From the IMG/VR virus record IMGVR_UViG_3300003690_002253: 64,000 nucleotides of DNA. One strand, written 5' to 3'. This document shows positions 31,601 to 56,161 of this stretch, piece after piece; positions within the stretch are counted from its first letter, which is position 1, and every line of letters begins with the position of its first letter. This DNA comes from an uncultured virus (IMG/VR IMGVR_UViG_3300003690_002253) (taxonomy: Duplodnaviria; Heunggongvirae; Uroviricota; Caudoviricetes). The notes below the pieces were generated by a model. The model did not search any database. It saw only the letters and a program-made list of their open reading frames with translations, and had not been told where the DNA came from. The position numbers and the translations under genes were made by a program.

Positions 31601-33126
31601 AGAGGACTCAAAGCGCTCTCAAAATCAGGAAGAACAAGATCAATATTCTTCTTCTTAGTCCATATCATCTTACCGCCCGACATGGCGACAACTCGCGGAC
31701 TTTTATGTGACATCGAATCCGGGAAACCTACAGTTAAATCAGCAACGTCCTGCGGAGAACGCCAGACCTTACTACCCGTCTTCGGGTTAATAAACTGAGC
31801 GTAGATTTTCCCGTCACGACCTTTGCGGGCATTGCGAGCCATGTATAAATCAACACCTACCTTCTCCGATTCAGGCGTGCGAAGAGGATCAATGAACCCA
31901 AAATGACTGGGTTGAACGTTACGTGCTTCTTCAGGAACCGCCTCCAGACTGGGAATACCTCCTGCGCCTAGCCGACTAATAGAATAAGCCTTGTCATAAA
32001 TCTCAGCCGGGTTGATTTCTTCCAAAGCCTGCCCAAGCCCCGACCCCAACAGCGCCGCCTCCATCTGCGATTTCAGAGCCGACGAAGGAAGCTTAGACAA
32101 ATCACCTTGATTAGTGGCTTTCCATAACAAGTTCCGCCTTACTCCACCTGAATCACGCCTAACTCTCTCAGAAAATAAATCCTCGGGACCCAATACCCGC
32201 TGATACGGCAAAGCATCTCTGTCATCTACAGAATCTTTGCCTTGAGACACGTTAATGAGTTTCTTAGTGATATCTAAGACAGCATCAAGACTCAGCCCCT
32301 CGTAGGGAGTGCCAAGTGTGCGCTTAGTCACTTCCGGATCAAGCGCCATACTTTCAAACTTTTCTACGAGCTTTTCCCGCGTTGACTGTTCATCACCTTC
32401 TAGGTCTTTGTCATTCAGGAACTTATCTTTAAGCTTCTTGTATGCAGACGCTTCGTCCGTTGGATAATTCGCGGCGTAAATCTCCGGACCCCACGCATCT
32501 TGTAATTGTTTCGGGGTGACGCCCATCGTCTTAAGCAACGGCATGAGAGGAATTTTAGCTTGCCCGGCTCGTATGTAGAAAACACCTTTCTCTGGGTCGA
32601 GAAAATAGCGATGTGACAGGCCTTTACCGGGCATGATATTAGCATGCGCTTCAATTTCTCCATTGTCTTTGATGCGTGTAAATACTCCCGAACGTAACCT
32701 CTGTTGGTTTCGCAATGTGTACTCGTTGCCCTGATGAATATATGTGCCACGACCTGTCAAGTGAGGCACCGTCATCAAAACAGACTTCTTACGATCAATA
32801 ACATCTCCTGTTTCATTATCCGTCAACTCCCACGTCCCGCGTAAACGACGCCCACGCGTCTCACCAGCTAGAATAGCTTTCTTCTGGTCTTTTATCGTGA
32901 CGTAGTCGGGGTCCAGATAATGAATATCCCGCAGACTCAGCGTGTGCTGTGTATTAGAAACAGGCTCAACACTTCCCGCCGCCTCCAACACATGACTGTA
33001 TATGTTGCGGCGAGTAGCCGTGACATCCCCAAATGAACGGGGATCTTCCTTCTCCGGCTCGACGGCAGGAAGCGGCTTAGAAGTCAATAAAGAAGTCGGT
33101 AAGCCGCTAAGAATATTGATATTCAT
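28696..33126 (-). CDS. rpoB: DNA-directed RNA polymerase beta / beta'-N-terminal fusion
   Basis: Beta motifs TPESEKVG, KNFEDASVISE, GDKLSGRYGDKGV, FMKLHH followed in frame by beta' motifs PVLPPAFRP, NRAPVLH and catalytic NADFDGD. Confidence 0.95.
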   Translation of the reverse strand: MNINILSGLPTSLLTSKPLPAVEPEKEDPRSFGDVTATRRNIYSHVLEAAGSVEPVSNTQHTLSLRDIHYLDPDYVTIKDQKKAILAGETRGRRLRGTWELTDNETGDVIDRKKSVLMTVPHLTGRGTYIHQGNEYTLRNQQRLRSGVFTRIKDNGEIEAHANIMPGKGLSHRYFLDPEKGVFYIRAGQAKIPLMPLLKTMGVTPKQLQDAWGPEIYAANYPTDEASAYKKLKDKFLNDKDLEGDEQSTREKLVEKFESMALDPEVTKRTLGTPYEGLSLDAVLDITKKLINVSQGKDSVDDRDALPYQRVLGPEDLFSERVRRDSGGVRRNLLWKATNQGDLSKLPSSALKSQMEAALLGSGLGQALEEINPAEIYDKAYSISRLGAGGIPSLEAVPEEARNVQPSHFGFIDPLRTPESEKVGVDLYMARNARKGRDGKIYAQFINPKTGSKVWRSPQDVADLTVGFPDSMSHKSPRVVAMSGGKMIWTKKKNIDLVLPDFESALSPLANMIPLKSMVKGQRLVMASRMTTQALPLVDAEAPLVQSAIPGTDGKRSYEEEYSKYMGSRYASMSGKVSKIDEDGVTVKYTDGETETLELYNNFPFNRKTFIHQTPVISHGDLFKKGQLLVRSNFTDPAGTTALGKNARVAYVSWQGKNFEDASVISESFAKRLKSEHMYQHDLDVDDKTKIGKKSYISLFPGKYDKAALSRLDENGVIKPGTAVEYGDPLVLATSQRETAYNKVHKKGQAGHADASIIWNHHDPGVVTDVELGKKGPVVVVKSYSDMQVGDKLSGRYGDKGVIADIIPDDQMPHDKDGKPFEVLLSPLGIITRTNPAQQAELYLGKIAAKRGKPIKVQDFDTSKDMSQWVYDQLRREGLSDLEDIYDPTRDKKITSIATGNRFFMKLHHTAETKGQARGAGAYSAEGAPAKGGESGSKRMALMDTNALLSHGATETLQDVGTVRGQRNEDYWLQFMSGVNPRDPKIPMVYTKFVNQLRAAGVNVKREGTQTHIMALTNKDVDKLAGSRNLASADGVDWNKGLQPIRGGLFDTAMTGGHNGNRWSAIKFAEPMPNPVMEEPIRRLLGLTQKDFQNVIGGAKDLPGFGSGPKAIHKALSAIDLDKELAKTRAVIRMGKRTERDQAIRKLGYLKSAKKLGIEPKDWILKRAPVLPPAFRPVNMMSNDIPLINDANYLYKELFEANKNLSGMKDLLGDETGEERLAVYNAFKAVTGLGDPISQKSQERGVRGILKDVFGTSPKFGTVQRKLISTTVDNVGRAVIIPNPNLDMDSVGLPEDKAFDVYQKFIVRRLKRKGMSIRHAMQHIRDRSDLARETLLSEMEHRPVIINRAPVLHKFGIMAFKPILTKGDTLQVSPLIVSGFNADFDGDAMNYHVPTTEGARKEAFERLLPSRNLLSPADFKRPVHAPSNEYVGGLWHATKAKSKRPKKVFNTMADMRAAYANGDISLDDRVQVLEET

Positions 33127-33135: not shown

Positions 33136-34749
33136 TCACTCTTCTTCATCCTCGTCAGGTTCAACATACACCTGCGGGTCAGGAACAGCGTAAAGCTCCG
33201 AAGGACGCTTAGCATAATTCTTAGCGGCTCGACGCTGCACAGCTTTCTCTAGTATCTTTCTCTGGCTATACTTATCCGACAGATGCTTAGCTGCCAGATA
33301 TCCAAGCAGAAGTGTGGGAATCGCGTACAGACCGTAAGCACCCATGGCCTTTTGCTTGAATTGAGGAGAAGTCACGGTCTCCACCACCTTGCCCGGAGCT
33401 TGCACTAGATCAGTCGCAGTACCAATCGCCGAAGATATGGGATCACCATTCGCGACTTTTTCCAAACTGGTTGCCCGCTCAATACGCAGGAAAAGATCGT
33501 CTAATTCCTCGCCTAATTTCTGAGCTGCGGTCTTTTCTGCGGCCATCTTACTTTTCGGAGAAGGGTAATGAGAAGTAAGCGCTTCTTGAAACTCTTCTTT
33601 AGCCGACTCTAGTTCGTCCTCAACCTCTTCCTGTCTGCGATCATCAAAGAAAGAGTCTGTTAACTTCCACCCACCGTAAGTACCGCCCATGGCAGCAGCC
33701 AAAAGACCGGGCCAATACCACTTCGCGTAATCGTGAGGGCTCGTTTTTATGTGGTTATCCTGAGCCTCTTTATCGTCTTCCTCTTCTTCATCTTTGTCCC
33801 TGTTGAGATATCTATATAACCCGTAACCACCCGCTCCCAACGCAGCACCACCGAGAGCCCCATACCCCAATTGCCGTGCTGAGATGCCCGTCCCGAGAAT
33901 ATTTTCAGATGACCAATTTGGCTCATCAAGTGCCATCTCTTCAACATCGTCACGGAGTTCTTGATTGTCACGGTGTTCTTGGTCTTGGGTGAGCTTGAGT
34001 TCGCGGGTCATTTCCTCCGGCGTGGGCGGTTCATCCGCGACGTCAGGAATGGACTTTTTCCCGTGTAAAATGTACTGTTGAATCTCGGGAGAAAGAGCTT
34101 CAAACTGGTCCGGATTACGCTTCCAATCTGCCCGTCGTGCCTCGTTATTCCAATCCTGAGGAGTAAATTGTTGTTGCTGGGCGAGATCCTCGTCGTAATA
34201 ATGGCCCCGCTCAGTTGAATAACGATTTGTCCAATCCCAGCCGTCGCGAAAGGTGCCATCGTCGTCATGCTTGCGCCAGCGGGACTTACCGCCCGGGTCC
34301 CAGCCAGCCATGCGGACCTGTTGTTTTTCTTCGTCCGTGCCTTCCCAGAGGCTCTTGGGAGATCGCCAGTTCAGCTCTGGAACCCCTCGCGGGCGGTCGT
34401 GCATCAGGTCCTTCGGCATAGACATCGTTTGAGCCACTTTTCTTAGCTCTTCTTCTTCTTCCTCTTCCACGGGATAAGGGACAGGCAACGGAGAGACACC
34501 AGCGCGAGACATCGAAGGTTTGCCCGCACGCGTCAGCAAATTCCAAAGACCTTGAGCACTGCGAAAACCCACAGCACCTCCAGCCCCTATCACACCCACC
34601 TGTAAGATATTCTTTATGGCCTCACGCTTCGCGTCTCCCTCAATGCCAGCAATCTGCTGAGGGGTGAGTACCGTTGCCGCTATTGAACCATTAGCGCTTT
34701 TAACCTCTGCAATCTTATCCAGCAGTTGGTGGGAGGTTTGAATGTCCAT
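33136..34749 (-). CDS. Putative internal virion polyprotein with glycine-zipper helices
   Basis: 537 aa; KSA, RKVA, DKEA, KMAAEKTAA, EKVA between hydrophobic Gly-rich segments. Confidence 0.7.
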   Translation of the reverse strand: MDIQTSHQLLDKIAEVKSANGSIAATVLTPQQIAGIEGDAKREAIKNILQVGVIGAGGAVGFRSAQGLWNLLTRAGKPSMSRAGVSPLPVPYPVEEEEEEELRKVAQTMSMPKDLMHDRPRGVPELNWRSPKSLWEGTDEEKQQVRMAGWDPGGKSRWRKHDDDGTFRDGWDWTNRYSTERGHYYDEDLAQQQQFTPQDWNNEARRADWKRNPDQFEALSPEIQQYILHGKKSIPDVADEPPTPEEMTRELKLTQDQEHRDNQELRDDVEEMALDEPNWSSENILGTGISARQLGYGALGGAALGAGGYGLYRYLNRDKDEEEEDDKEAQDNHIKTSPHDYAKWYWPGLLAAAMGGTYGGWKLTDSFFDDRRQEEVEDELESAKEEFQEALTSHYPSPKSKMAAEKTAAQKLGEELDDLFLRIERATSLEKVANGDPISSAIGTATDLVQAPGKVVETVTSPQFKQKAMGAYGLYAIPTLLLGYLAAKHLSDKYSQRKILEKAVQRRAAKNYAKRPSELYAVPDPQVYVEPDEDEEE

Positions 34750-37939: not shown

Positions 37940-39877
37940 CTAAATGGAGCATTTGTCTCCAGTACACGCGTACTGACGCACTTGCTCCGTCATATCCTCC
38001 TTTTCATACTTCATAAGATCAGCCCAATTAATTTCAGGGAAGCTGGCTGACCTGCGATCGTACTCCTCTTTCTCCATCGCCTCATAAGGTGCAAGAGGGT
38101 ACGCACCACCAAAATAAGGCAAAAAACTCAGACCACCTACTTCATCCCAATGAGAATAAACCCAATTTCCAACATCAGCCCATTCCGTTTCCTTGACATA
38201 TATGGTTACAGCTGGGTTGTGTTCTGTCCAGTTTTTCTTAAAGAGGAGCCACTTAGCTAACTGCTCCAAAGCAGATTGCTCTCCCAGAAGAACACCCCCT
38301 TCAGGAGCACGCATAGGAAACTCCAACACGAGCAAACCACTGTCATCATAGTCCTCAAAAGTAGGAACACCGGCATCACGCAGCATCTTCGCAACCGGGT
38401 TGGTACTACTGGCTCGCACACGGCGAATGTAATACTGACCATGATGGCCTTTGAACCCGGCGGCTGTATCAAAGAATACACTACTATCCCCTGATGGTTT
38501 AATACATGTTAGTGCCGCTGATGGTCGAATACCCAATTTCTCAGACCAGTAAAGATTTGTGTCACGAACGTGACGTCTAATAGTAAGCAAGTTTTGTGCG
38601 GCGTCTTCTCCTTGAAACAACGGGCTGTCTAGAAAACCCAACAAATCTACTCCAAGGAGACGTTCATCCTCACTATTCTTTTTCCATTCATCAGACAAGT
38701 AACTGAAATTCGTCATTGTCGCCTGAAGGGTGCCCCAGATAGTAGCGCAGCGTGCTTTATCAATTACCTCTGTAAGCGTATCCTCAGGACGCACAACTGC
38801 AATAGACAAGTTACAGAACTGCTTGTCTCTCAGAACAATCTCCCCACACGGATTAGTGCCGAACAGGTAACCATCCGTTTCACGACGAGCAGGAAATTGT
38901 TTCTTCAAGCTGCCCCTGTTGAAAATACCCCGCTCACCACTCTGGCTGTGCGAAAGAGCATCCCATTCTTCCTTCCACTCTTCCGGGGAAGGCTTATCAG
39001 AATACACAGCGGAATTGTTGGCCTGATTCCGTTGAGGATCAGTATTCCAAAACTCCCCGTCCTTGCACTTGCGCATCTGCGTGTCACACAAATCAGACAA
39101 AGAAAGCCCACTAGCGCGACGCACACCACCCATCTGCACAATGCGATGGGCGTAGCAGTTGATATCGTGCAGGTCTAAGCTCGTAAGGCGTGTACCCTGA
39201 CGAACCAAAACTCTCTCACGAGTAAACCGAAGCAAATCCCGGAGAGGCCCCGGCCCCGAGGAACGACCGCCCTTGATCTTAAGCGGTGTTCCCTCTTTGC
39301 GTATCTTACTGAAGTCAAACTCAATATCACGACCATCAAGCCAAGTTTCCAAGCCTAACTTGTAAGCATCACACCAGCCTTCTGTCGTATCATCAATAAC
39401 ATGATGAGCTACAGCATCTTCCTGTTGCCTTTTGACAATAGGCCAAAACTTGACGCTGTGAGCATACTCAACCGAGAACCCAACACCGGTTCCCTGCATG
39501 AGAATATAAAGCTCCTCTGCCATATCGCGAGGGCTTTTCAGGAATTGGAAGGCACAATTGTAAACACCCACCTGACAACGCTCCAGAGCAGGACCAGCCA
39601 TCTGGATGCAGCGCATCGAAGGGCTAGCACGTAGCGTAAGAAGATCACTCCGAAGACGATTCCACACTTCAACACCCACTATGTCGGAATCATACTCTTC
39701 CTCGACATGCCCTTTAAAATAAGAAATGACCCGATCCACTGTCTCGGGCCATACCTCTCGTCTGTTGTCTTCGGGTCGAAAGCGAGCAAATTTGTCGAAA
39801 GCCTGAAAGAGTTGAGCGTGTTGATTTATGCCATTGAAATACTTGTGTACGTCCGCAAATTTAGATACCGCATCCAT
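37940..39877 (-). CDS. nrdJ: Class II (adenosylcobalamin-dependent) ribonucleotide reductase
   Basis: YNC, GTGVG, GGVRRAS, TNPCGEI, FCNL, TCIKPSG, C-terminal CTGDKC; start set at ATG 39877 with AGGAG SD. Confidence 0.93.
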   Translation of the reverse strand: MDAVSKFADVHKYFNGINQHAQLFQAFDKFARFRPEDNRREVWPETVDRVISYFKGHVEEEYDSDIVGVEVWNRLRSDLLTLRASPSMRCIQMAGPALERCQVGVYNCAFQFLKSPRDMAEELYILMQGTGVGFSVEYAHSVKFWPIVKRQQEDAVAHHVIDDTTEGWCDAYKLGLETWLDGRDIEFDFSKIRKEGTPLKIKGGRSSGPGPLRDLLRFTRERVLVRQGTRLTSLDLHDINCYAHRIVQMGGVRRASGLSLSDLCDTQMRKCKDGEFWNTDPQRNQANNSAVYSDKPSPEEWKEEWDALSHSQSGERGIFNRGSLKKQFPARRETDGYLFGTNPCGEIVLRDKQFCNLSIAVVRPEDTLTEVIDKARCATIWGTLQATMTNFSYLSDEWKKNSEDERLLGVDLLGFLDSPLFQGEDAAQNLLTIRRHVRDTNLYWSEKLGIRPSAALTCIKPSGDSSVFFDTAAGFKGHHGQYYIRRVRASSTNPVAKMLRDAGVPTFEDYDDSGLLVLEFPMRAPEGGVLLGEQSALEQLAKWLLFKKNWTEHNPAVTIYVKETEWADVGNWVYSHWDEVGGLSFLPYFGGAYPLAPYEAMEKEEYDRRSASFPEINWADLMKYEKEDMTEQVRQYACTGDKCSI

Positions 39878-39912
39878 GCCACACACGTCTCCTACGTTAA
39901 ACACACCAGAAT

Positions 39913-39936
39913 AAAAAAGGACGGTTCAACCGTCCC
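39913..39936 (-). terminator. Rho-independent terminator
   Basis: GGACGGT-TGA-ACCGTCC followed by T6. Confidence 0.7.
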
Positions 39937-40405
39937 GAGCCTGCTTCTGCCACCAGTTACCACTTGCCATATCGATAACTAATGAAGCATCCTCATCTGT
40001 AGGGGCCACAGCGAATATTTGAAGTCGAAGTCTGTGATCACTGTAGGTTCCCTCAATGCAGAATCGAGGACCTTCCAAGCCGCCATTATAAGCTGTCGGA
40101 TGAATCCACGCCATATTTTCTATCGAAGAAAACCCGGAAAGGAACGGAGAAATATCCAGACGGAATCCCGGGTTGATCATCGTGCCATCTTTCGGTCCGC
40201 CACGAAGCTCGTTGGCGCACGGGTACACCCCCAAAACCCACACGCCCGACTCGTTCACAGAATTTTCAGGCGAAAGCCACCGGTATCCAAGTTGTCCCAT
40301 CAGAGTGATAGGTTCGATGTACTCGTGAACCTTGTTGACAAGATCCAGCAACCACGGAGGAGGTGGAGAAACTTCATTTACGTGTAAACTCATGTGCTCC
40401 TCCAC
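39926..40405 (-). CDS. Hypothetical protein
   Basis: 159 aa, protein-like composition. Confidence 0.65.
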   Translation of the reverse strand: MEEHMSLHVNEVSPPPPWLLDLVNKVHEYIEPITLMGQLGYRWLSPENSVNESGVWVLGVYPCANELRGGPKDGTMINPGFRLDISPFLSGFSSIENMAWIHPTAYNGGLEGPRFCIEGTYSDHRLRLQIFAVAPTDEDASLVIDMASGNWWQKQARDG

Positions 40406-40962
40406 ACAGGTCCCCCCAAGTAATGGGAACCTCTCGCAGGGTCACAGTAAGAGGGCACGCCATCCACCGCCAAAAGAAGGTGAGGTGCTGCCCCGGCAAG
40501 GTACCGATCAACCTGCGCCAAACACTTACTGCGAAACCGACCCATAATCAAGACGCAGTTGAAGTAATCAGCCGGTACATAAGGAGGAGAACAGTACTGT
40601 GACTCATTTTTCTCCAACCACACAGTCGCAGCAGTCTGGGCCTGCGTCCAAGACATGTCTTCTTCGTTATCTACCACTGCATGTATTTCATGCTCAAAAG
40701 AAAACTGCTCTAGAAACTTTTGAATGTGTACCACGTCACCCGCACGGCCCCACATCAAACATCTAAGACCATCTTTTACAGCGAAACGAACAAAACCAGA
40801 CAACTGGTCATGCAGCTGTCGAATAACGATGCCGGGATGTGTTGGATAAAACCGGAAGTACTCAGAAGAGCAGCTATCCAAGTAAGACTGCGTCTGCAAC
40901 CGCAAATCTTCAAATGTACGTCTGGGAAACTGACCAAGATTAATAATCGAATCGTCGTTCAT
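40390..40962 (-). CDS. Hypothetical protein
   Basis: 190 aa co-oriented ORF. Confidence 0.6.
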   Translation of the reverse strand: MNDDSIINLGQFPRRTFEDLRLQTQSYLDSCSSEYFRFYPTHPGIVIRQLHDQLSGFVRFAVKDGLRCLMWGRAGDVVHIQKFLEQFSFEHEIHAVVDNEEDMSWTQAQTAATVWLEKNESQYCSPPYVPADYFNCVLIMGRFRSKCLAQVDRYLAGAAPHLLLAVDGVPSYCDPARGSHYLGGPVWRST

Positions 40963-41421
40963 CTATTCCATATCCGCTGACCACTGGTTTATTTCTTCTG
41001 GAGTCACAATTCTCTGGGGTTCTCCCTTATATGTCAGCTGAGTGCCGGGCCCCATAGCGTCTGATCCCTGAAAATAATCCAATAGAATCTCATCTCCGCT
41101 CCCAATAAAAGAAGAAGCCACCATCGTCAAGTTATTTTCATCAGAAGTGACGACAGCATTAGGTTTGGAAGAATGGTTCGTGTAACGAGCTACCTCGGAA
41201 ATTTCCCAACTGTGGTACAGGTCAATTCCCGGGATGCCGGGCACAAATGCAGCAAAATGAGTTATGACACTATCGGACTCAATGTCTTCAGTAGCAAACA
41301 AACCTTTACCGTGAATACTACTCGTCTCAATACGACACCCTAATTTCTCCTCTGGCTCTATCTTATCCTCAAATCCCAGCTTTTGAAGAATATCAATCTT
41401 TGTTTGACGGTTATCTACCAT
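40963..41421 (-). CDS. SET-domain protein lysine methyltransferase
   Basis: SSIHGKGLFATEDI, ARYTNHSSKPN, GDEILLDY. Confidence 0.9.
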   Translation of the reverse strand: MVDNRQTKIDILQKLGFEDKIEPEEKLGCRIETSSIHGKGLFATEDIESDSVITHFAAFVPGIPGIDLYHSWEISEVARYTNHSSKPNAVVTSDENNLTMVASSFIGSGDEILLDYFQGSDAMGPGTQLTYKGEPQRIVTPEEINQWSADME

Positions 41422-42835
41422 AGTCCATAGCCCATTTACTCAGTTCACCAGCGTCCACTTCACGCATCGGTTTTCTTTTATGTGTCAGACGAGTACCGGG
41501 AGCCATAGCCCCGGTGACTTGAAAATAACTCACCTTGATCTCGTCACCCTTCTTGATAGGCGCAGCCGCCACCATTGTCATCTTCTGCTTGTCGGAAGTA
41601 ACAATGGTGTTGGGATCAGGGGAATGGTTCGTGTAACGGGCAGCCTCAGAAAGCTCCCAATCATCCATTCCCATCTCGCCGGGGATGAAGTCAGCAGAAT
41701 GAGCTACACGGCCACCCGCAGGGATGTCACGCGTGGCAAACATACCTTTCCCGTGGATATCACTCTTCTCGATACGCCACGGTTCCTCCTCAGCCTGCTT
41801 GTCCCATTTGTACTCGGGAACGTCGTCATAACCTCGAATGTTAACATTGCGTTTGCGCAGTTCCTTCAGCACGTTCTTAACTTCTCTCACATACGTTGGT
41901 GTGACGGGGTCATAACTGATTCGCTCATCTCGTGTTAACTCGGGATGAACTCCTTCTTGACTAAACGTGCCGCCGGGAAGGCCATACAAATATGCGGGTT
42001 TATTCAGTAGCGACAACTTGCCGGGCTGTAACTCATCAATGTAGAAATCACGCTTCCCGGTGTCCGTATCCTCTTCGTAACCCATTGCCAACTCTTCGTC
42101 AGATGCTGGAAGTGCCATCGAAAGAGCAAGATTTTCGTCCGGTGTTCCGAAAACAACTGGCTTGTTAACCAATTCATGTGATCGCGGTTCGAGCCGATGA
42201 ATCCCGCCGACGGGTGAACCGTGATAGATTGTCTTCTCCCGCTCTACCTGCGCCCACGCGTCATCCTTTGACATACCTCCCTCAATAAGCTCCCAAGCCT
42301 TGTGAATGTCATCAAGCTTACTTGTCGGATATACGCTAAAGTCCTCGTCCGGGCTTGTAGCGGTCAAAAACCCGCCGGGACGATCCCGTCGTTCATAACC
42401 TCCACCAGCAATCAGCTGCTCCAACTGCTTTTTGTACTGCTCCTGCTCTTTCGGATCATCCGTAAGAAGCATCCGATCATAGTCACGACCTTCAGGCTCT
42501 GGTCGACCGTACTTGCGAGCACGCCCACGGGAACCTGTTAATTGTGATTTTTCTCGCAGGTTAGTAAGCAGTACCAGTTCCGGCGGTACTGCCGACTTGG
42601 GGATATGAATCTCGAAGCCTGATGAGATATGCGTAATCCCGTAGATACCGCCCTCTTCTGAGTCAATCTTGAACTCACTGGGGCTTTTCTTAATCAGCTT
42701 ACGCAAAATGTCATGCTTAGCCGCATAGTTCTTCCGATCCGATTCTTCTTTAGCTTTCAACAACTCTGCTACACGAGCAGTCTTAACTAGCGCTATCAGG
42801 CTTTTCCGTAATTCCGCTTCCCTGTCCATCGACAA
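41411..42835 (-). CDS. Polyvalent protein: unknown domain + nucleotidyltransferase-like + ADP-ribosyltransferase-like + SET domain
   Basis: LTGSR...DYD; IYHGS...VFGT...AYLY...ERIS; HGKGMFAT...ARYTNHSPDPN...GDEIKVSY. Confidence 0.8.
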   Translation of the reverse strand: MSMDREAELRKSLIALVKTARVAELLKAKEESDRKNYAAKHDILRKLIKKSPSEFKIDSEEGGIYGITHISSGFEIHIPKSAVPPELVLLTNLREKSQLTGSRGRARKYGRPEPEGRDYDRMLLTDDPKEQEQYKKQLEQLIAGGGYERRDRPGGFLTATSPDEDFSVYPTSKLDDIHKAWELIEGGMSKDDAWAQVEREKTIYHGSPVGGIHRLEPRSHELVNKPVVFGTPDENLALSMALPASDEELAMGYEEDTDTGKRDFYIDELQPGKLSLLNKPAYLYGLPGGTFSQEGVHPELTRDERISYDPVTPTYVREVKNVLKELRKRNVNIRGYDDVPEYKWDKQAEEEPWRIEKSDIHGKGMFATRDIPAGGRVAHSADFIPGEMGMDDWELSEAARYTNHSPDPNTIVTSDKQKMTMVAAAPIKKGDEIKVSYFQVTGAMAPGTRLTHKRKPMREVDAGELSKWAMDYGR

Positions 42836-42967
42836 ATATCCCTCCCTGTATCCGCTTGCGGAAAATCCGTCCCCGACCAGCCATCATAACGTCTTGCGTA
42901 GTAAATCGGGATATCCAACCGCGATAAATCCAGTTCGAAAAGTCACGATTTTTCCCCTTTTTCAGTA

Positions 42968-42997
42968 TTGACCATGTCCCCCAAAGGAGACTACCAT
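42968..42997 (+). promoter_or_regulatory. Sigma70-like promoter for csrA
   Basis: TTGACC-N18-TACCAT. Confidence 0.55.
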
Positions 42998-43041
42998 ACC
43001 CTTACTTGACCCGGAGGGATTTTTACAAGGAAGGAATCCAA

Positions 43042-43233
43042 ATGTTAGTCCTCTCTCGAAAGAAGAACGAGTCAATTGTCATTAACGATAACATCCACAT
43101 CACTGTCGTGGAAGTGCGAGGTGACAAGGTGAGGCTCGGAGTTACTGCCCCAAAAAGCGTGCCAGTACATCGCAAAGAGATTGCGGATAAGATAGAGGCA
43201 AAGGAAGCCTCTACTGTCACAACCAGTGAGTGA
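43042..43233 (+). CDS. csrA: Carbon storage regulator CsrA (translational repressor)
   Basis: MLVLSRKKNESIVINDNIHITVVEVRGDKVRLGVTAPKSVPVHRKEI; AAGGA SD. Confidence 0.95.
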   Translation: MLVLSRKKNESIVINDNIHITVVEVRGDKVRLGVTAPKSVPVHRKEIADKIEAKEASTVTTSE

Positions 43234-43240: not shown

Positions 43241-43627
43241 CTACCTCAGCGCAGCGATCAAGCCGATAACGCTGAAAAAAGCAGTAAGCAGCATGACAAC
43301 TGCCCCGGCGATCACTTGACTGCGTGTAAGTGCTTTAGCAGCGGTTAGAGAATTACAGCTCTCGTGTATTTCTTTGATGACTTCGTCCTGTTGATTAAGT
43401 GCGTCCTCAGCTCTGGTAAGACGCTGCGCAAGAGGTGGCTGTCCATTACCGTCACGTACGATATGACAGAGGACTTGCACGTCCTCTTTCATATCAAGCG
43501 TACGCTGGTCTAAAGAAGCAAGACGTTCAAGAATCTGAGTATTAGACTCACTCAACTTCGTGTAATCACCACGAATGTCAGCTATTAACTCTACGACTTG
43601 CGAAAGTTCACTATTATCTTTTGGCAT
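43241..43627 (-). CDS. Coiled-coil protein with C-terminal TM helix
   Basis: 128 aa. Confidence 0.65.
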   Translation of the reverse strand: MPKDNSELSQVVELIADIRGDYTKLSESNTQILERLASLDQRTLDMKEDVQVLCHIVRDGNGQPPLAQRLTRAEDALNQQDEVIKEIHESCNSLTAAKALTRSQVIAGAVVMLLTAFFSVIGLIAALR

Positions 43628-43652: not shown

Positions 43653-44219
43653 TTACCCGCTAAACGGGTTAAACCTTTTCATATTTTCCCATATATTTCC
43701 CGGAATATCTGACAAGCCCTGTGTTTGCCGGGGAGGGAGTCCCGCTTGCGCGCGGGCACGTGTATCGTTTCGTTTCCAGTTATACCCGCCGTACCCACTG
43801 CCAGCATTCAGCCGTTTGAACAAATCCATCGGATTATTCGGAAAATCCAATGGTGTTCGTGGCGTTGTCCCATCGCTGGCCTCGATCTGCGCTAGGGTGG
43901 GCGCACCACCAGTAAAGTTGTTGGGATTAACTGCCGTGTCACGTGTCGTACGCAGGTCCCGTCCACGTGCAGCGACAAAGCTTGGGGGATATGGGAATTG
44001 GCGCTGCGGCTGATCAGGAGGTAGTTGAGTTAATTCGTGACCATACGGTCGGCTTCGAGGTAGGTTCTGTGGAGAATCAGCATCTCGATTCTTGGACAGG
44101 TACTCAGGAGCATTCTTCGGTGAATACGCGCTTCTCGCCTCATTCCCTTGCAGCGGTGGAGCCGCACTCTTCATCATCTGTCGAGCAGCAATTCGACCTA
44201 ATTGAGCAATTGTGTTCAT
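43653..44219 (-). CDS. Leader-tagged Pro-rich protein, paralogue 3
   Basis: Starts MNTIAQLGRIAARQMMKSA. Confidence 0.75.
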   Translation of the reverse strand: MNTIAQLGRIAARQMMKSAAPPLQGNEARSAYSPKNAPEYLSKNRDADSPQNLPRSRPYGHELTQLPPDQPQRQFPYPPSFVAARGRDLRTTRDTAVNPNNFTGGAPTLAQIEASDGTTPRTPLDFPNNPMDLFKRLNAGSGYGGYNWKRNDTRARAQAGLPPRQTQGLSDIPGNIWENMKRFNPFSG

Positions 44220-44241
44220 CCTTAGCTTCCCCCTGTTTTCG

Positions 44242-44685
44242 TTAAGGATTTCGGCCAATCAGATTGGGGACTGGTCTGGGAATCAAAGGACCGGTTGCAC
44301 GTCCGGCGGTGGGGGTGCTAGGGGTTGGAGCAGGAGCAGGAGTAGGAGTAGGTCGGTTAATCAGACTGGGGGCTGGTCTGGAAATCTTAGGACCGGTTGC
44401 ACGTCCACCCATGAGACGATGACCAGCAGCCGAGCCGTAAGCCGGTTCCGTCTCCATCGGTGCCATCCGGGCTGACCCCGCCATGAGACGATGACCAGCA
44501 GCCGAGCCGTAAGCCGGTTCCGTCTCCATCGAGGATAGGCCTCGCTGCTGTTGGTTGAGGGAACGGTTCATCGGCGAGTTCATCGCCGCATTGGACGGAG
44601 CCGTACCGCCACGACGTGAGAGGTCAGCAGCATGCTTCATCATCTGTCGAGCAGCTACTCGGCCTAGTTGTGCAATTGTGTTCAT
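44242..44685 (-). CDS. Leader-tagged Pro-rich protein, paralogue 2
   Basis: Starts MNTIAQLGRVAARQMMKHA; internal repeats. Confidence 0.75.
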   Translation of the reverse strand: MNTIAQLGRVAARQMMKHAADLSRRGGTAPSNAAMNSPMNRSLNQQQRGLSSMETEPAYGSAAGHRLMAGSARMAPMETEPAYGSAAGHRLMGGRATGPKISRPAPSLINRPTPTPAPAPTPSTPTAGRATGPLIPRPVPNLIGRNP

Positions 44686-44732
44686 TTTAATTCTTCCGCA
44701 GAGAAGTCTCGTCCCTGCTGTCGTAGCCAACA

Positions 44733-45269
44733 TTATGGTCGGACATTGAACACACCGCCAAAGCCCCTACTAACGGCCTCAGACCAATTGGGGCCTGAAG
44801 CTTTGTTTGGTGGCGACCCGCGTGGTGTCCGTGGTGCTTCATAACTATCAGGAGTGCCTTCATCATCTAGATGCCCCGGAAATTGTGGGGTGAAAGGGAG
44901 ATTCTCCCGGCCCTGTGGATAGCTATTCATCAGATATTCATGCAGCTGATTGATGGTATCCCGCCCCGGCGAGCCGAGAGCGGCGTGAGTTAATTCGTGG
45001 GAAGGTGTTGGCGGCTGCTGATAACGTGGATTTCCCAATCCCTCAGGCGGACTTACGCGAGGGATATTCGGCTCATTGTATAATGGCGGCACTTCCGTAG
45101 TCCTTGGTGGAGGCGGCGGAGGGGCTTTTGGAATCCGTGATCCGGATTGCGGTGCACCGGCCCCCGCCATCGGTGAGGCGAATCTGCCCTCCGGCGCTGC
45201 AAACCCGTTCTGCGCCCGCTTAATCATCTCACGAGCAGCAATACGACCAAGCTGTGCTATTGTGTTCAT
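44733..45269 (-). CDS. Leader-tagged Pro-rich protein, paralogue 1
   Basis: Starts MNTIAQLGRIAAREMIKRA. Confidence 0.75.
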   Translation of the reverse strand: MNTIAQLGRIAAREMIKRAQNGFAAPEGRFASPMAGAGAPQSGSRIPKAPPPPPPRTTEVPPLYNEPNIPRVSPPEGLGNPRYQQPPTPSHELTHAALGSPGRDTINQLHEYLMNSYPQGRENLPFTPQFPGHLDDEGTPDSYEAPRTPRGSPPNKASGPNWSEAVSRGFGGVFNVRP

Positions 45270-45508
45270 AATTTTTACCTTGGCCAATAAAAATGACTTC
45301 CTGAGATCCCCTTCCTCAGGCCCGGCATCTCATACCGCTAAGTATAAAACTCATAGAGGGCTAAAGGTACTCCCCCTATTCCGCCTGTTATCGGGCCTTT
45401 TCGCCATGATAACATGCCCGTCTCGAACCAGCCTCCTGTGCGAGTTCTCAACTCCTAACCTGCCGGTACCTGCGACAAAGCCATTCACAGCATAATAACA
45501 AGTAGAAG

Positions 45509-46529: not shown

Positions 46530-47468
46530 TCAATTTTTAACTGCGGATTTCGCCTCGTTCCACTCAGGAGTATCGGGAAGTCTGCGATCCCAATCCGCCG
46601 GAGGTAACTCAGAGAGAAACCAGTTAGGCCAACTTTCAATGTTTTCGCTGATAACGCAAGCAGCTGCATCCTTGCCGGACACATCAATCTTTGTCCGGTT
46701 AGAAAACCTGTAACCTGCCAGCAATTTCTCTATAAGTTTTGTCTCTGCAAGTATTTCTTCCCGACACCACGTGGCTGGCAAATCACTCCCCTGCCGACGA
46801 TGAAAATGCTGCCCGCGAAAATTGTCTCCATTAGAGCACTGCATAAACAGCAAACACAGATCAACGTCTTGAACGTGAGTATATTGCTGCTCTGGGAAAG
46901 AAGATGCGAACACAGACACCATACGATCATTCCACAAGATGCGCCCCGCATGACGTCCCACATCCAGAGGAGGAAACATTCTCCTATGGAACATTAAACT
47001 GCTAGTACAACAACGTTCAGCAGCATCACCACCCGGTTGGGAATAATCTGTGACGTATAACTCGTCACTGTCGTAGAAGTAATAAAACGACTTGGAAAAA
47101 ACAGAAGGATACTCACGAGAGTACTCCAGCTGCGCGGCTAAACGAGTAGGATGTGACAAGTTATCGTCATCCCAGACGACAATGTAATCCCCCGAGCACA
47201 AGGAGACCCCGTAAGTGGCCATCGACGTAAGTCCAACACCCTCTATCTTGCGCAAGCACACTTTCGACTTGAGTTGCTCCAGAACCTGTGAAGAATGCCG
47301 TTTATCCCTTAACCATCCCAACAACAAGGCGTGGTAGTTATTGTCATCCACTAGGATAACAAGCTCGGCATTCTCGTACGTCTGCTCCAAGAAATTATAA
47401 ACAGATCGCTGAAGTAGACCATAACGCGATGAGTGCGATATGCACAGTGCAGATATTTTGTCAGTCAT
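46530..47468 (-). CDS. GT2 family glycosyltransferase
   Basis: FLEQTYENAELVIL, GDYIVVWDDDNLSHPTRLAAQ. Confidence 0.85.
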   Translation of the reverse strand: MTDKISALCISHSSRYGLLQRSVYNFLEQTYENAELVILVDDNNYHALLLGWLRDKRHSSQVLEQLKSKVCLRKIEGVGLTSMATYGVSLCSGDYIVVWDDDNLSHPTRLAAQLEYSREYPSVFSKSFYYFYDSDELYVTDYSQPGGDAAERCCTSSLMFHRRMFPPLDVGRHAGRILWNDRMVSVFASSFPEQQYTHVQDVDLCLLFMQCSNGDNFRGQHFHRRQGSDLPATWCREEILAETKLIEKLLAGYRFSNRTKIDVSGKDAAACVISENIESWPNWFLSELPPADWDRRLPDTPEWNEAKSAVKN

Positions 47469-47476
47469 ATGCCTAC

Positions 47477-48262
47477 CTATACAAATTCTGCGGGATCAAA
47501 ATACTGCTGGACGTCTGACGGTACTCGGCTTTGTAAATATTCCCAGTGTGCTGGTCTGTTCTCAAAATCACCTTGCGTACTCGAAACGTCTCTCTTTCGG
47601 ACTCTTCGACCTCCGGGTAGATTCAAAAAACTAAAAATCTCCGATATGACCATCGAGTAGTTCGAGACAATCTCAGAATAACCTATCTCCAAGCGATCGT
47701 CACAAATACGAGATACTTTTTCATCTGTAGCTACCTGCATACGAACAAAAGAGACAAGTGCATCAATATCTATCTGCAACGGAGAATAAGCCGGATAAGC
47801 TCCAGAAAGATCACCGGGAGACTGTAAAGCCTCGCGGCGTTCCTGTTCCAAGGCCACAAAACAGGCAATTGGATTTCTTTTGATATGAACCATGCAGAAA
47901 TCACCCCGCCCACACCAGTTAGCAAAGTAATCCCACAGGTCATGTGCATGCAGATGAGGGTAAAGAACCGTTACACCAACTACCCGCTCCCCGTATCGCG
48001 GGTTATCAAATATCTTATTTGTGAGATATTGCTCACCAGATATATTACCGTCTACAAGCCAGTCCGGAGTAGTACCACTAGGTCCGAAATACCTTTCATG
48101 GTACTCTCGCCGCTCCGAATCGTGCTCAGTCAAAAGAGGAGCATGACACGTGATTAAGGGATGCCTGATTAAAGCAGCTTGAATAGCCGAAGCGCCACAC
48201 CTTACCGGCCCTGTTATGACAAAGTTAAGCACTTCGGGGGCATTTGATTTTGACAGCCCCAT
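47477..48262 (-). CDS. Sulfotransferase (Stf0/NodH-like)
   Basis: FVITGPVRCGAS 5'-PSB-like loop, HIKRNPIACFV, LEIGYSEI. Confidence 0.7.
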   Translation of the reverse strand: MGLSKSNAPEVLNFVITGPVRCGASAIQAALIRHPLITCHAPLLTEHDSERREYHERYFGPSGTTPDWLVDGNISGEQYLTNKIFDNPRYGERVVGVTVLYPHLHAHDLWDYFANWCGRGDFCMVHIKRNPIACFVALEQERREALQSPGDLSGAYPAYSPLQIDIDALVSFVRMQVATDEKVSRICDDRLEIGYSEIVSNYSMVISEIFSFLNLPGGRRVRKRDVSSTQGDFENRPAHWEYLQSRVPSDVQQYFDPAEFV

Positions 48263-48279
48263 ACAAAAGTCCTCAACTA

Positions 48280-49107
48280 TTAGCTTGTGGCTCCGACAGG
48301 TCCCATGGTTTTAATACTCGCTGTGAGTCCGGCGCGTTCCATGACATCTTTGATGTAATCAAGATAGTCTGAAGGAATGTTACCGCAAACACGCCCATCA
48401 TATTGAGACTTGGCAAATTCCCCGAAAAAACGTTCCCTCGAAGACTTGTTGCGTGTGTGGTAATAGGCAATCGTTAAACAAGGCCCCGGAAACCAATCCA
48501 GTGCGTTATCCAGAATAATCTTGTTGCTGCCAAAGACCCGAGTAATAAACTCGTCATCCTCACCCGCCTCTACCATGTCAGCATCATACAGGTGGGGAGA
48601 ACCATTGGAAGCCAACCGAGGAAACAAAACAGTATTCGGAATACCGGATGAATCTTCATAAATGCACAGTGTATGTCGATCAATGTCTACACGGACTTGT
48701 TGGTTTGCCATAACGCAAGAACCATCCCGCCGCACAGCCATCTGCATAAACATCCGATGAAGATGACTATGATCGTCATCGTCGAACGGCATCACCCATT
48801 CTCCGTCCGCCTCCTCGATACCCCTGTTCCGAAGCGAACCAATCGTCGGATATTCAATTGGATCAACGCGGTACTCTCGAAGCGTGGGCCATTGCTGATC
48901 AAGCACGGCTTTATTCGGAGCTGCATTAATAATAACGACTTCTTTGTTCGGATAAGTCTGTCGCAAAAACGAAGACACAGAGGAACGAGCAAGATTAATG
49001 CGCTCGTCATCACCCACGACGAGGATACCGGAAACAAGGGGTATCCCCATTTCAGCACCATTACGACCCGACGCAGTCGGGGCATCAACAGGATCAACCA
49101 TCGACAT
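48280..49107 (-). CDS. GT2 family glycosyltransferase
   Basis: LRQTYPNKEVVII, LRNRGIEEADGEWVMPFDDDD, GEDDEF. Confidence 0.88.
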   Translation of the reverse strand: MSMVDPVDAPTASGRNGAEMGIPLVSGILVVGDDERINLARSSVSSFLRQTYPNKEVVIINAAPNKAVLDQQWPTLREYRVDPIEYPTIGSLRNRGIEEADGEWVMPFDDDDHSHLHRMFMQMAVRRDGSCVMANQQVRVDIDRHTLCIYEDSSGIPNTVLFPRLASNGSPHLYDADMVEAGEDDEFITRVFGSNKIILDNALDWFPGPCLTIAYYHTRNKSSRERFFGEFAKSQYDGRVCGNIPSDYLDYIKDVMERAGLTASIKTMGPVGATS

Positions 49108-49199
49108 AATAAACTCCTTTTTGTGCGGTGGAACTACAAATTAGCTGCCCAGACCATGAACGAAGTGTAACCCAAAGGGGAACGTCTGACAAGGAATAA

Positions 49200-49481
49200 C
49201 TAAGACAACAGTTCTACCTCAAAACCATCTTCAGGAACAATTGCTTCCTCGGGGAACAAGACGAAGTCAATCTCGTACACCCACATAGACCCCGCATTAT
49301 CTCGATCAATTATACGCATAAAAACGAAAGAACCCATGCCCATGGAAATGTCGTAATATTCCTTGCTTACAAGGATATTACGATTGGAGGAACGTCCATC
49401 TACAGAAACCAAGAAATTACGGCTCTTGGTTGCCGAATCGGCGACAGGCAATGTGATTCTAAAGAGGTTTTTACTGTACAT
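49200..49481 (-). CDS. Hypothetical protein
   Basis: 93 aa ORF. Confidence 0.5.
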   Translation of the reverse strand: MYSKNLFRITLPVADSATKSRNFLVSVDGRSSNRNILVSKEYYDISMGMGSFVFMRIIDRDNAGSMWVYEIDFVLFPEEAIVPEDGFEVELLS

Positions 49482-49849
49482 GCCCCAAGAGTAACATCAA
49501 TTGCCCAAAGCCACAAAAAAATTAGGCGTCACGGAGGGATTTTCACCCGTCACGATTGTGGACACAACCATAACTAGCCATATGTGTTAAAAAACTCACG
49601 CAGAGTTCGGAGGGAGTTTCAACACGACTATCATCTTCGGCAAACACCAAACGCAACTCGTCACCTCCCAATGGGACTCTTCAGTTGTGAGACCAAACGA
49701 GCTTACCGAGGTGAATCGGGAAATTGCACCCGGTACCATTGAAAAATGTCCGCGTTGCTGCCTGTCTCGGAGCCTGATGTCCATACCAATCCTCCAAGAG
49801 CCCACCAACGTCTTCATTAGACCACGCAACACCTTTATAGCTAGCACGC

Positions 49850-49878
49850 AAGTTATCAGACTAGAAATTAAGTGTCAA
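49850..49878 (-). promoter_or_regulatory. Sigma70-like promoter
   Basis: Minus strand TTGACA-N17-TAACTT with TG extension. Confidence 0.5.
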
Positions 49879-49895
49879 GCAACTCCCGGTACAAA

Positions 49896-51119
49896 TCAGC
49901 CCTTCTTGCCCCAACCATTCCTGAGAAGGCGAATAGCATTTCCGCCAAGTATATTCCGAATATCGTCATCAGAATACTTTGGGCTATCGGGAGAACGCCA
50001 AACAGATGCCAATTCTCTTGTAAGACGTGGCATCTGTGACATATCGGTAAGCTCATCAGGCGGATCGGTCATCCCGTCAAAATCAGAACCGATCGCAGCT
50101 GTCTTCACGCCACCAAATTGCGTAATTCGGTCGATGGTCTGCATGATGTACTTCATGCCCATCTTCGTATCCACAGGCGACAACCAGTAGTTCATGAAAA
50201 TAACACCAACCACACACCCATGATTCCCCATCCAGCTAAGTTCCCAATCCTGAAGAGTGTAAGGATCAGGGTTAATAGCGTGAGCACCCGTATGCGTCGC
50301 TACTAGGCACTCTTCCTTTTTATGATGCTCCACAAGCTGGTAAACGCGTGCGCGAGCTGGGGGAGTCATATGAGTGATATCTATCAGCATGCCCAATTCC
50401 AGCATGCGCTCCACGACTACTTCACCTATCGGCGTAAGTCCTTTTGTGTGATCCCACTTATCCAGCAATCCCTTCCAGCGGGATAACCTGAGGCCATATT
50501 CAGGGTATGGAAACACAGGAGACTCAATACAGGCATTCGGATAGAAGTGACCAAGCGTAAGGTATACGACGCCCCGGTCATAAAGAGTCTGTAAGTTACT
50601 AAGAACTTCATTCTCATGTTGCAAAGTCTGTCCGTCAAAGTCCGCTATCTCTTTACCACACTCATCGCCGTGAAGACTGTGTGCTCCCTCTACCGAATGA
50701 ATCACACCCATATAGCCATCAGCTATTGTCGCATCCAGCTCGCGCACATTTGTGATATGTCGAACACGGCGAACACAAGGAGATGTACCGGCATCAACCT
50801 TGCGGTTATGACGATCTATCTGCCCTTCGATATCATCTAAAGACTGTATCGTAAGATCAAAATACGGCTGCTTGAACAGGCGGCGGTAAGCAACAGGCTT
50901 CAACCAGCTCAGCCACTTGATAATAGGGATATCCGTTAGCCACCCCATTTCCGGGGCATAGATGGTGGACAATATGATATCCACCCCGCCCGCTTCCATC
51001 TTAGGAAAGTCTGTCCGTGTGGTAGCGGGCCAAGCCGACTTACCGAACAACTTCATAAGGAACTTACGCTTGTTGTCGGTAGATAGATCCAGTTTTCGCC
51101 AGCTTTCCATTCTTCTCAC
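49896..51119 (-). CDS. Membrane dipeptidase family (peptidase M19) protein
   Basis: SVEGAH, YLTLGH, GLTPIG, MLIDITH, VATH, AIGSDFDG, ILGGNAIRL. Confidence 0.88.
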   Translation of the reverse strand: MRRMESWRKLDLSTDNKRKFLMKLFGKSAWPATTRTDFPKMEAGGVDIILSTIYAPEMGWLTDIPIIKWLSWLKPVAYRRLFKQPYFDLTIQSLDDIEGQIDRHNRKVDAGTSPCVRRVRHITNVRELDATIADGYMGVIHSVEGAHSLHGDECGKEIADFDGQTLQHENEVLSNLQTLYDRGVVYLTLGHFYPNACIESPVFPYPEYGLRLSRWKGLLDKWDHTKGLTPIGEVVVERMLELGMLIDITHMTPPARARVYQLVEHHKKEECLVATHTGAHAINPDPYTLQDWELSWMGNHGCVVGVIFMNYWLSPVDTKMGMKYIMQTIDRITQFGGVKTAAIGSDFDGMTDPPDELTDMSQMPRLTRELASVWRSPDSPKYSDDDIRNILGGNAIRLLRNGWGKKG

Positions 51120-51475
51120 TTATCCTCGTCAGTAAAAACACGCCACACTTTCGCGTAGGCGGCTCCCCAACTATCTCGGTGTGCGTCTTCATCATCGGCA
51201 TGGCCGTTCTCCGTCATGTCTACGGCATGTGCCCACTCATGTAACAGTGTATCAATTGCTATCTCTACCTCCAAACCCCTCACTATATCAATAACAAATC
51301 GGGTGATCCTTTTTCTGGTGTTAAAATGGGCCATACATTGCCCAAACAGGTCTTCTCCGGTGTCGTCACACACAAGATTAACCTTGGTGCGGACCACCAC
51401 AGGCACAGAAATAGGCAACTTATCTCGCAGCAGGCGTAAAGCTTTGTCGAATTGTTCCCCATATTTGCTACTCAT
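51116..51475 (-). CDS. Small HExxH zinc metallopeptidase-like protein
   Basis: DTLLHEWAHA...AHRDSW. Confidence 0.75.
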   Translation of the reverse strand: MSSKYGEQFDKALRLLRDKLPISVPVVVRTKVNLVCDDTGEDLFGQCMAHFNTRKRITRFVIDIVRGLEVEIAIDTLLHEWAHAVDMTENGHADDEDAHRDSWGAAYAKVWRVFTDEDK

Positions 51476-51481
51476 AAGTTA

Positions 51482-52231
51482 CTATCTCTTTCGCTTTCGA
51501 TGCTTGTGTAACTTACCATGATAGACATACTCGTAATCGGTCACACAAACCTGTTCCACGTGAAATATATCCCCGTGAAACCACACCACAGACCACCCAT
51601 TCTGCCAATCCGGGCATGTTACATATTCCGGGTCCAAAGTGCAGAGACAACCATTCTCCCAAGCACCCAACATCGTGTCATAGGTACGGTGATAGTGTGC
51701 TCCCAGACGATGTGTATGTCCGTGAATGACGTTACAACCGAACTTATCCATGTGGCCCTTGGCCGAAGCACCACTAGCGCGGCGAACCAGCTCACCGTGG
51801 ATGAACAAGAGCTTCCCTATGCGATAGGGCTTACTCGCATCAACCCATTCAATCCTGTACTTATCAAGCCCTAACAGCTCCTCAAAAGTAAGGCTGCGTA
51901 AGTCACTGAGGGCCTGCGCTTGACTCCACAAATACCGCCGCAGACGGTTCTCGTGGTTGCCCTCGGAATAGATAATGCGGGCCTTAGGGCACACACTGCG
52001 CAGACGCTCAAAATACCGCGCTGCGTCATCTAACTCATCCTGCAAACTCTCTCGACGTGCAGGATTTTTGTCAAAGCGAGACAGACTGTAAAAATCAAGG
52101 ACATCGCCTAAAAGGTGAATGACCTTAGGTTTATGTTCCCTTAGGAACTCGATTGTCAGATCTTCAATTACCGGATCGTGGAAAGGAATATGTTGATCCG
52201 ACAGCACGACGTGCATCTGAGTGGTAGGCAT
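51482..52231 (-). CDS. Calcineurin-like metallophosphoesterase
   Basis: SDQH, GDVLD, GNHE, HG, GHTH. Confidence 0.9.
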   Translation of the reverse strand: MPTTQMHVVLSDQHIPFHDPVIEDLTIEFLREHKPKVIHLLGDVLDFYSLSRFDKNPARRESLQDELDDAARYFERLRSVCPKARIIYSEGNHENRLRRYLWSQAQALSDLRSLTFEELLGLDKYRIEWVDASKPYRIGKLLFIHGELVRRASGASAKGHMDKFGCNVIHGHTHRLGAHYHRTYDTMLGAWENGCLCTLDPEYVTCPDWQNGWSVVWFHGDIFHVEQVCVTDYEYVYHGKLHKHRKRKR

Positions 52232-52315
52232 TCACTGTTCCCTCCTTGGTTCGTGAATAGTCCAAGCCTACCAAAAGGTTAGCAGCTTAACCCCATTGGT
52301 TGGAAGAGATGTTTG

Positions 52316-53383: not shown

Positions 53384-53407
53384 TCCTTCTTAAATTTCAC
53401 AATTTAC

Positions 53408-54543: not shown

Positions 54544-54545
54544 GT

Positions 54546-56151: not shown

Positions 56152-56161
56152 AAACTCTCGC

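Follow-up and report, generated by a model that had tools for sequence, protein, structure and literature searches.

We analysed a window of 64,000 nt, IMG/VR record IMGVR_UViG_3300003690_002253 from an uncultured virus (Caudoviricetes), and report here on one of its genes (41411..42835, minus strand), the product of which joins a predicted nucleotidyltransferase (NTase; module A), a predicted ADP-ribosyltransferase (ART; module B) and a SET lysine-methyltransferase domain in a chain of 474 amino acids. We read this three-domain protein as a phage polyvalent protein, a host-takeover or counter-defence effector that would act early in infection and in which each domain would have its own target; we put the probability of this reading at roughly 0.6. 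One polypeptide would string together unrelated enzyme modules that act on the infected cell. From a nucleoside triphosphate (NTP), the NTase would transfer a nucleotide to a hydroxyl group, be it of a protein, a nucleic-acid 3' end or a small molecule; the ART, of the His/Glu type, would use NAD+, and the SET domain would use S-adenosylmethionine (SAM) to methylate protein lysine. A second, free SET protein and two further proteins would be produced with it from one operon. The analysis shows domain folds, conserved motifs, modular shuffling and operon layout; catalytic activity, targets, timing and delivery route we infer.

Counted from a TTG codon at 42835, the open reading frame (ORF) encodes 474 residues, and this numbering is used throughout. 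An ATG at 42829, two codons inside, yields the 472-aa form found in protein record P0002 (100% identical) and leaves five residues ahead of the motif E-L-R-K-S-L, similar to the N-termini of homologs. Because these N-termini match, we take the ATG as the probable start. Close upstream lies a GGGAGG that resembles a Shine-Dalgarno sequence. The motifs quoted in an initial annotation of this DNA, made from the letters and translations, were all found where it placed them: GSRGRA at residue 101 (nt ~42535), DYD at 118 and DFSV at 165; YHGS at 204 (nt ~42226), VVFGT at 227, YLY at 282 and ERIS at 304; KQA at 346 and, within the SET domain, GKG at 362, NHS at 403 and VSYF at 435. Searched as a whole, the protein had no match at E ≤ 1e-3 by tblastn in 50,697 phage records, and none in a single-protein scan of IMG/VR.

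Module A (42236..42574, minus strand; residues 88-200) is modelled as a minimal Pol-beta-type NTase fold carrying G101-S102, D118, D120 and D165. In a model of residues 1-215, the block-mean predicted local distance difference test (pLDDT) is 88-96 across residues 91-200; a second model, from ESM Atlas, was unusable (pLDDT 0.58). G101-S102 sits between strand 98-100 and helix 101-108, D118 and D120 fall on the next strand (119-124) and D165 on a later one (164-169). The G-S, D-x-D and D motifs are invariant in alignments of 28 segments, with D118, D120 and D165 conserved in at least 90%, and invariant or near-invariant motifs across the module comprise G-S-R-G-R-A, Y-G-R-P-E-P, R-D-x-D, D-R-P-G-G-x-L-T and D-x-S-x-Y-P. 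Foldseek gave a list made up almost purely of NTases, among them an archaeal CCA-adding enzyme (E 2.2e-3, probability 0.99), Cid1, TUT4, MenT1, OAS3, ANT(2'')/ANT(6), GrpB and GLD-2, with RsfS/MALSU1 appearing as NTase-like folds. Neighbours in VIA and BFVD were also NTases, and the named near matches in the viral fold library were mostly phage proteins labelled nucleotidyltransferase or poly(A) polymerase head domain (best E 1.4e-3). A wide VIA search with the model of the N-terminal region plus module A was filled by unspecific helical-hairpin matches to residues 1-55. We call module A an NTase because the fold neighbourhood is consistent and the invariant catalytic residues are correctly placed; by its model it has the Pol-beta NTase arrangement, and it is predicted to be active.

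The module is widely shared. A whole-protein word-index search returned 29 proteins, 26 of which have residues ~88-200 in common with the query (33-87% identity over the spans aligned by BLAST) and differ elsewhere. Including two shorter and 17 longer proteins (898-1961 aa) found later, 45 proteins besides the query carry module A, fused to SNF2 helicases, SET, NUDIX, InPase, P-loop kinases, 2H and GNAT, or to a HAD-PNKP phosphatase with LigD 3'-phosphoesterase (LigD_N) and ATP-dependent ligase. It was found in three IMG/VR contigs, in none of the cultured phage records, and, at the sensitivity of a pattern scan, in none of 185,579 species-representative prokaryote genomes. One of the contigs, L001 (89.6 kb), encodes at 12..2702 (plus strand) an 896-aa protein in which HAD-PNKP phosphatase, module A, LigD 3'-phosphoesterase and ATP-dependent ligase are fused and which resembles an enzyme fully equipped to heal and seal nucleic-acid ends. 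The other two loci have a trypsin-like serine protease gene (L002 2146..2970 and L003 6544..7401; products 54% identical to each other), so that in two of the three related loci such a gene stands just upstream of a module A-SNF2 gene. The window has no homolog of this protease and, apart from module A and a small SprT-like protein, has nothing in common with the three loci.

Module B (41801..42235, minus strand; residues 201-345) is modelled as a minimal ART fold bearing H205-G206-S207, F229, E268, Y284, F291 and E304. A phmmer search with residues 195-350 against 1.84 billion representative proteins brought up 149 relatives at E ≤ 1e-3, and 42 of these reach E ≤ 1e-10. With the two records of the query included, the set of 150 matched by the module B profile divides equally into 75 standalone proteins of at most 200 aa and 75 in which the module lies within a larger protein of up to 2637 aa. 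Its place in the larger proteins is internal in 49, N-terminal in 20 and C-terminal in six; among their other domains are NUDIX, P-loop kinase, InPase, 2H, ligase and SNF2. An alignment of 52 sequences shows His205 invariant, with at least 90% conservation of Gly206, Ser207, Phe229, Glu268, Tyr284 and Glu304. AlphaFold, given this alignment, produced a very confident model (pLDDT 92.3; predicted template modelling score 0.86) that places H205 on strand 203-207 and E304 directly before strand 305-307, a position from which E304 would be the equivalent of the catalytic Glu. Strand 2 reads V-V-F-G-T with the conserved Phe229, Tyr284 is on another strand, and the classical strand-2 Tyr, the residue that stacks on nicotinamide, is not evident.

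By title, about 40 of the best 50 rows of a structure search with module B were ARTs, poly(ADP-ribose) polymerases (PARPs), Tpt1/KptA or toxins of the diphtheria and cholera type. The fold comparison returned KptA (values 8.2, 2.4 and 76, the last being aligned residues), TreX (8.1, 3.4, 98), Scabin (6.9, 3.9, 98), pertussis toxin S1 (6.8, 4.6, 107) and Arr (6.4, 4.5, 104). The best Foldseek rows were Arr (E 0.094, probability 0.90), mosquitocidal toxin, TreX, KptA and PARP-2, with no neighbour at E ≤ 0.001. Tpt1/KptA chemistry needs an Arg-His-Arg-Arg tetrad. We considered module B as a Tpt1/KptA enzyme and ruled this out: the match is limited to the NAD+ lobe (76 aa, chain 91-180), and the 52 sequences have no conserved Arg. 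Pfam DUF6886 matches eight of the 52 relatives (E ≤ 0.01; best E 3.2e-9) and ART-PolyVal one (E 3.6e-4); the query itself scores 16.0-19.9 bits against a DUF6886 gathering threshold of 27 and has no ART-PolyVal match, and a PDB sequence profile search yielded no more than a non-significant resemblance to ARR-2 around Y-H-G and G-Y-x-Y (E 2.4). A literature search found no paper on DUF6886. Judged by its model, module B is an ART-fold domain of a family outside current models, bordering DUF6886 and ART-PolyVal; we call the family undescribed, with the reservation that the domain catalogues of the polyvalent-protein paper by Iyer et al. 2017 (PMC5512222) could list related families.

The chain ends in a minimal SET domain (41414..41800, minus strand; residues 346-474). 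SET enzymes are recognized by a G-x-G motif, an N-H-[SC] motif and a catalytic Tyr, which correspond here to GKG at 362, NHS at 403 and Tyr437. Pfam SET matches residues 390-437 with E 2.7e-9 (37.8 bits against a cut-off of 22.4), and the N-terminal half of the domain (345-384) matches MLL1 SET chains in PDB with E 1.3e-3. The next gene encodes a second, free-standing SET protein of 152 aa (40963..41421, minus strand; Pfam SET E 4.5e-10) that is 53% identical to the fused domain. Among the matches listed, a literature search on phage SET domains gave nothing relevant.

The domain calls of the initial annotation were borne out. Its Pol-beta-type NTase agrees with fold prediction, fold search and homolog motifs; its Arr-like ART has the backing of a confident fold model, the fold search and the conserved His and Glu; and the SET domain it described as complete scores above the Pfam cut-off with all motifs intact. 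Structure searches recovered NTase and ART neighbours. The label of polyvalent protein, which it had also proposed, suits a chain with three catalytic domains whose modules recur in many architectures.

How these modules combine was examined in 198 collected proteins. Modules A and B share a chain in the query only, and the same holds for module B together with this SET clade. Module A and SET are joined, in both orders, in 13 other proteins, a count to be read with the first search in mind, which favoured proteins sharing two modules; in searches with module A alone, SET is present in two of 19 hits. Where the query has the ART, between module A and SET, its closest full-length relatives have a different, unassigned domain, module C. 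Module C is ~190 aa long, begins D-V-Y-V-Q-S-A-V-P...K-H-G-L-L-S and occurs in P0004-P0008, P0011, P0015 and P0019. A possible module B in P0004, P0010 and P0011 was ruled out, as the module B profile matches none of 13 homologs, which carry module C or no middle domain. Beyond SET and the ARR-2 resemblance, PDB sequence searches gave only SNF2, matched through other domains of the homologs. On the sequences collected, the NTase-ART-SET combination is so far unique, and at least three module families (A, N1, described below, and B) escape current libraries.

Several observations weigh against the effector reading. The fusion partners of the NTase hint at nucleic-acid ends or nucleotides no less than at host proteins. 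In addition, Foldseek scores for module A are modest, with nothing at E ≤ 0.001, and neither Pfam nor NCBIfam has an NTase family that matches it at E ≤ 1. The protein might instead be a nucleic-acid (RNA) end-repair or end-modifying enzyme that counters host anticodon nucleases or similar defences, the NTase restoring or capping 3' ends and the ART acting on nucleic-acid phosphates or bases in the manner of KptA, DarT or Scabin. The 2021 jumbo-phage survey, which describes RNA-repair sets that contain KptA ARTs and RlaP NTases, supports this reading. The resemblance of module B to KptA, however, spans the NAD+ lobe alone in a family lacking a conserved Arg, and module A has no Pfam match to RlaP or to any other NTase. 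Moreover, Pfam and NCBIfam scans found no ligase, kinase or phosphatase in the chain or the operon, the SET domain is a protein methyltransferase, and among the collected proteins modules A and B are paired in the query alone. We consider end repair unlikely and retain the polyvalent effector as the better account of the protein.

Two short parts precede module A. The first, N0, is a helical motif (E-L-R-K-S-L-I-A-L-V-K; 42776..42835, minus strand; residues 1-20) that forms part of a predicted helix spanning residues 2-33. Its core L-R-[KQE]-S-L lies inside the first 30 residues in eight of nine occurrences among the 198 proteins, and it precedes different modules: N1 in the query and P0003, module A directly in P0004, P0005, P0010 and P0011, and other sequence in P0032. 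The second, N1 (42578..42775, minus strand; residues 21-86), is a segment of ~65 aa with two helices and a beta-hairpin, modelled with pLDDT 52-85, and has the signature G-I-T-H-x-P-[ST]-G-F-x-I-H and no Pfam family. It corresponds to the ~70-aa unknown domain of the initial annotation, which homolog analysis sustains. N1 is present in 17 of the 198 proteins in N-terminal, internal and C-terminal placements, commonly directly ahead of module A (query, P0009, P0017/18, P0192) or of module B (P0032, P0069, P0083, P0143). A role as N-terminal leader was ruled out, since it is internal or C-terminal in seven of the 17 carriers, and its distribution looks like that of an accessory domain of catalytic modules.

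These N-terminal parts bear on how the protein might reach the cell. The initial annotation read the product as a packaged polyprotein that is processed in the head and injected. On such a reading, the chain could be packaged in the prohead by way of its N-terminus, cut at linkers by the head protease and injected in pieces like T4 Alt. Delivery is proposed in the polyvalent-protein literature (PMC5512222), and the N0 motif is largely confined to N-termini. The initial annotation had also taken K-x-A as the mark of the leader end and of the ART/SET boundary. The first of these places is sound, as residue ~20 is a real module junction, but the motif itself is not informative. The protein has five K-x-A sites against 2.7 ± 1.5 in 5000 shuffles, 12.7% of which reach at least five, and K-x-A was rejected as a cleavage motif on account of this chance frequency. 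Nor is KTA conserved: across five N0-bearing homologs, two (P0004, P0005) have K-E-S or K-E-A there and two have K-V-A. VKTA lies inside the predicted continuous helix, and DKQA falls in an acidic stretch, [DE]-K-[QK]-A-E-[ED]-E, that stands ahead of SET in the homologs as well; by alignment, this stretch shows itself to be a conserved linker and not evidence of cleavage. N1, the other N-terminal part, is no leader, and the N0-bearing proteins may be orthologous 5' ends retained by descent. Within the 64-kb window, no recognizable virion gene, protease homolog or packaging signal is linked to the three-domain gene, and the A4 paper does not describe an ART (0 occurrences of the terms searched). 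Processing and injection in the manner of Alt is accordingly doubtful, and packaging of the protein in virions, taken by itself, can be suggested only tentatively; for ordinary early expression of the gene we see even odds.

More speculatively, modules A and N1 and this SET clade may be the parts of a combinatorial effector toolkit, so far undescribed, belonging to uncultured large phages. The recurrent NTase-SET pair would then nucleotidylate and lysine-methylate one bacterial target, and the N0 helix would act as the tag that targets the chain to the capsid for co-injection with DNA. We judge this improbable as a whole; if true, phage SET effectors directed against a prokaryotic host protein would be seen here for the first time.

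The three-domain gene heads a four-gene operon closed by a hairpin. Its stop end and the start of the second SET gene share 11 nt, the gene for a 190-aa protein (40390..40962, minus strand) abuts the second SET gene, and the gene for a 159-aa protein (39926..40405, minus strand) overlaps that of the 190-aa protein by 16 nt. A terminator-like hairpin of eight pairs, five of them G-C, followed by a T-run (39936..39918, minus strand) lies ahead of the gene for ribonucleotide reductase (37940..39904). Neither the 190-aa nor the 159-aa protein has a family in Pfam, PHROGs, NCBIfam or PADLOC; for the former, ESM Atlas gave a sub-threshold lead to class-I methyltransferases (score 0.89). The presence of two small family-less proteins, together with fold neighbours that include the toxin ARTs TreX, ParT and DarT and the NTase toxin MenT1, would suit a phage-borne toxin or superinfection-exclusion module, in which the ART, the NTase or both arrest growth like DarT, ParT or MenT and an operon partner restrains them. 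Yet nothing in the operon matches a PADLOC or toxin-antitoxin family, and the domain searches gave no antitoxin-like domain, whether macro/DarG-like or of another kind. The modules are carried in large fusions of several enzymes, as is typical of offensive phage proteins, and module A is missing, within the reach of the pattern scan, from the prokaryote genomes. A toxin or exclusion module is highly improbable.

Upstream, a divergent intergenic region of 170 bp (42836..43005) separates the three-domain gene from a CsrA-like gene. It contains one weak sigma-70-like match, on the plus strand, and is probably a promoter region, presumably used as such. The CsrA-like regulator (43006..43233, plus strand; Pfam CsrA E 5.2e-26, phrog_9500) is the sole clear plus-strand gene nearby. 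Beyond it lie a coiled-coil protein of 128 aa whose C-terminal segment is hydrophobic and whose only matches are weak holin/XhlA-like ones (43241..43627, minus strand) and three tandem paralogous ORFs of 201, 163 and 184 aa without a family match (43653..45287, minus strand), which share a near-identical N-terminal M-N-T-I-A-Q-L-G-R-[IV]-A-A-R and then diverge into proline-rich low-complexity tails.

The window as a whole is phage-like, with long ORFs all on one strand, most of them without any match. It has PHROG matches, the CsrA-like gene, split multisubunit RNA polymerase beta/beta'-like genes (28696..33126 and 23739..25634) and a sugar-modification cluster. The nearest cultured phages are of ~180 kb, for example Salmonella phage Arash and Vibrio phage D181, with ~31% identity in the large RNA polymerase protein. 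A 537-aa ORF (33136..34749, minus strand) directly upstream of the large beta-like gene occupies the position of the portal gene in Arash; BLAST finds no similarity between it and the Arash portal. The sugar-modification cluster (46530..63543, minus strand) encodes three family-2 glycosyltransferases, an NAD-dependent epimerase/dehydratase, dTDP-4-dehydrorhamnose 3,5-epimerase, a DegT-type aminotransferase, a GNAT protein, a sulfotransferase-like protein and an M19 dipeptidase.

If its three domains are active, this small phage protein would unite modification chemistries that depend on NAD+, NTP and SAM. It belongs, in addition, to a network of over 190 related multi-enzyme proteins that current family libraries fail to see, since Pfam offers no model for modules A and N1 and module B lies under the DUF6886 and ART-PolyVal thresholds. 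The role of SET domains against bacterial hosts is essentially unexplored, and a compact chain of 474 aa with clean domain borders is a practical entry point for assays and target finding.

Like the polyvalent proteins of PMC5512222, as presented in the part of that paper available, the proteins collected here combine several unrelated catalytic domains in one phage polypeptide and recombine them freely, and the partner set of SNF2, NUDIX, InPase, 2H, GNAT and ART agrees. In the same text, ARTs of the Tox-ART-HYD2 type with an H-Y-D site are the commonest protein-modifying domain, in contrast to the His...Glu arrangement of module B, which gives no ART-PolyVal match above threshold. That text also lists the Pol-beta NTase among domains confined to polyvalent proteins of conjugative elements and has no occurrence of the term SET domain, whereas here the NTase is the hub of phage-type proteins and SET a frequent partner; the polyvalent-protein concept would be extended on both counts. 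The three-domain protein is further set apart by its small size (474 aa) and the lack of a peptidase domain. The available part of the 2021 jumbo-phage survey likewise has no occurrence of the string "protein methyl".

With T4 Alt the protein shares a phage-encoded ART proposed to reprogram the host. Packaging and injection of Alt have been demonstrated experimentally, while for the three-domain protein they are conjectural. Alt and Mod have an R-S-E active site according to PMC5512222, and strand 1 of module B has His in place of Arg. Arr, TreX and the NAD+ lobe of KptA/Tpt1 share the modelled fold of module B at 12-20% sequence identity with no significant sequence match; KptA has in addition an RNA lobe and conserved arginines, both of which module B lacks. 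Module A resembles GrpB, MNT/MenT-type proteins, phage poly(A) polymerase head domain proteins and RlaP in having a core of ~110 aa that carries the G-S, D-x-D and D motifs, and RlaP also in its association with ligase and phosphatase. To our knowledge, no histone-like target has been described for the SET domain of the three-domain protein. Minimal SET proteins occur in viruses, as with chlorovirus vSET, and in bacteria. The SET domain described here has the same ~120-130-aa core, free of pre- and post-SET zinc modules and with G-x-G, N-H-S and Tyr intact, and differs from such proteins in being encoded by a phage of prokaryotes, in its fusion to an NTase and an ART, and in the free copy that adjoins it.

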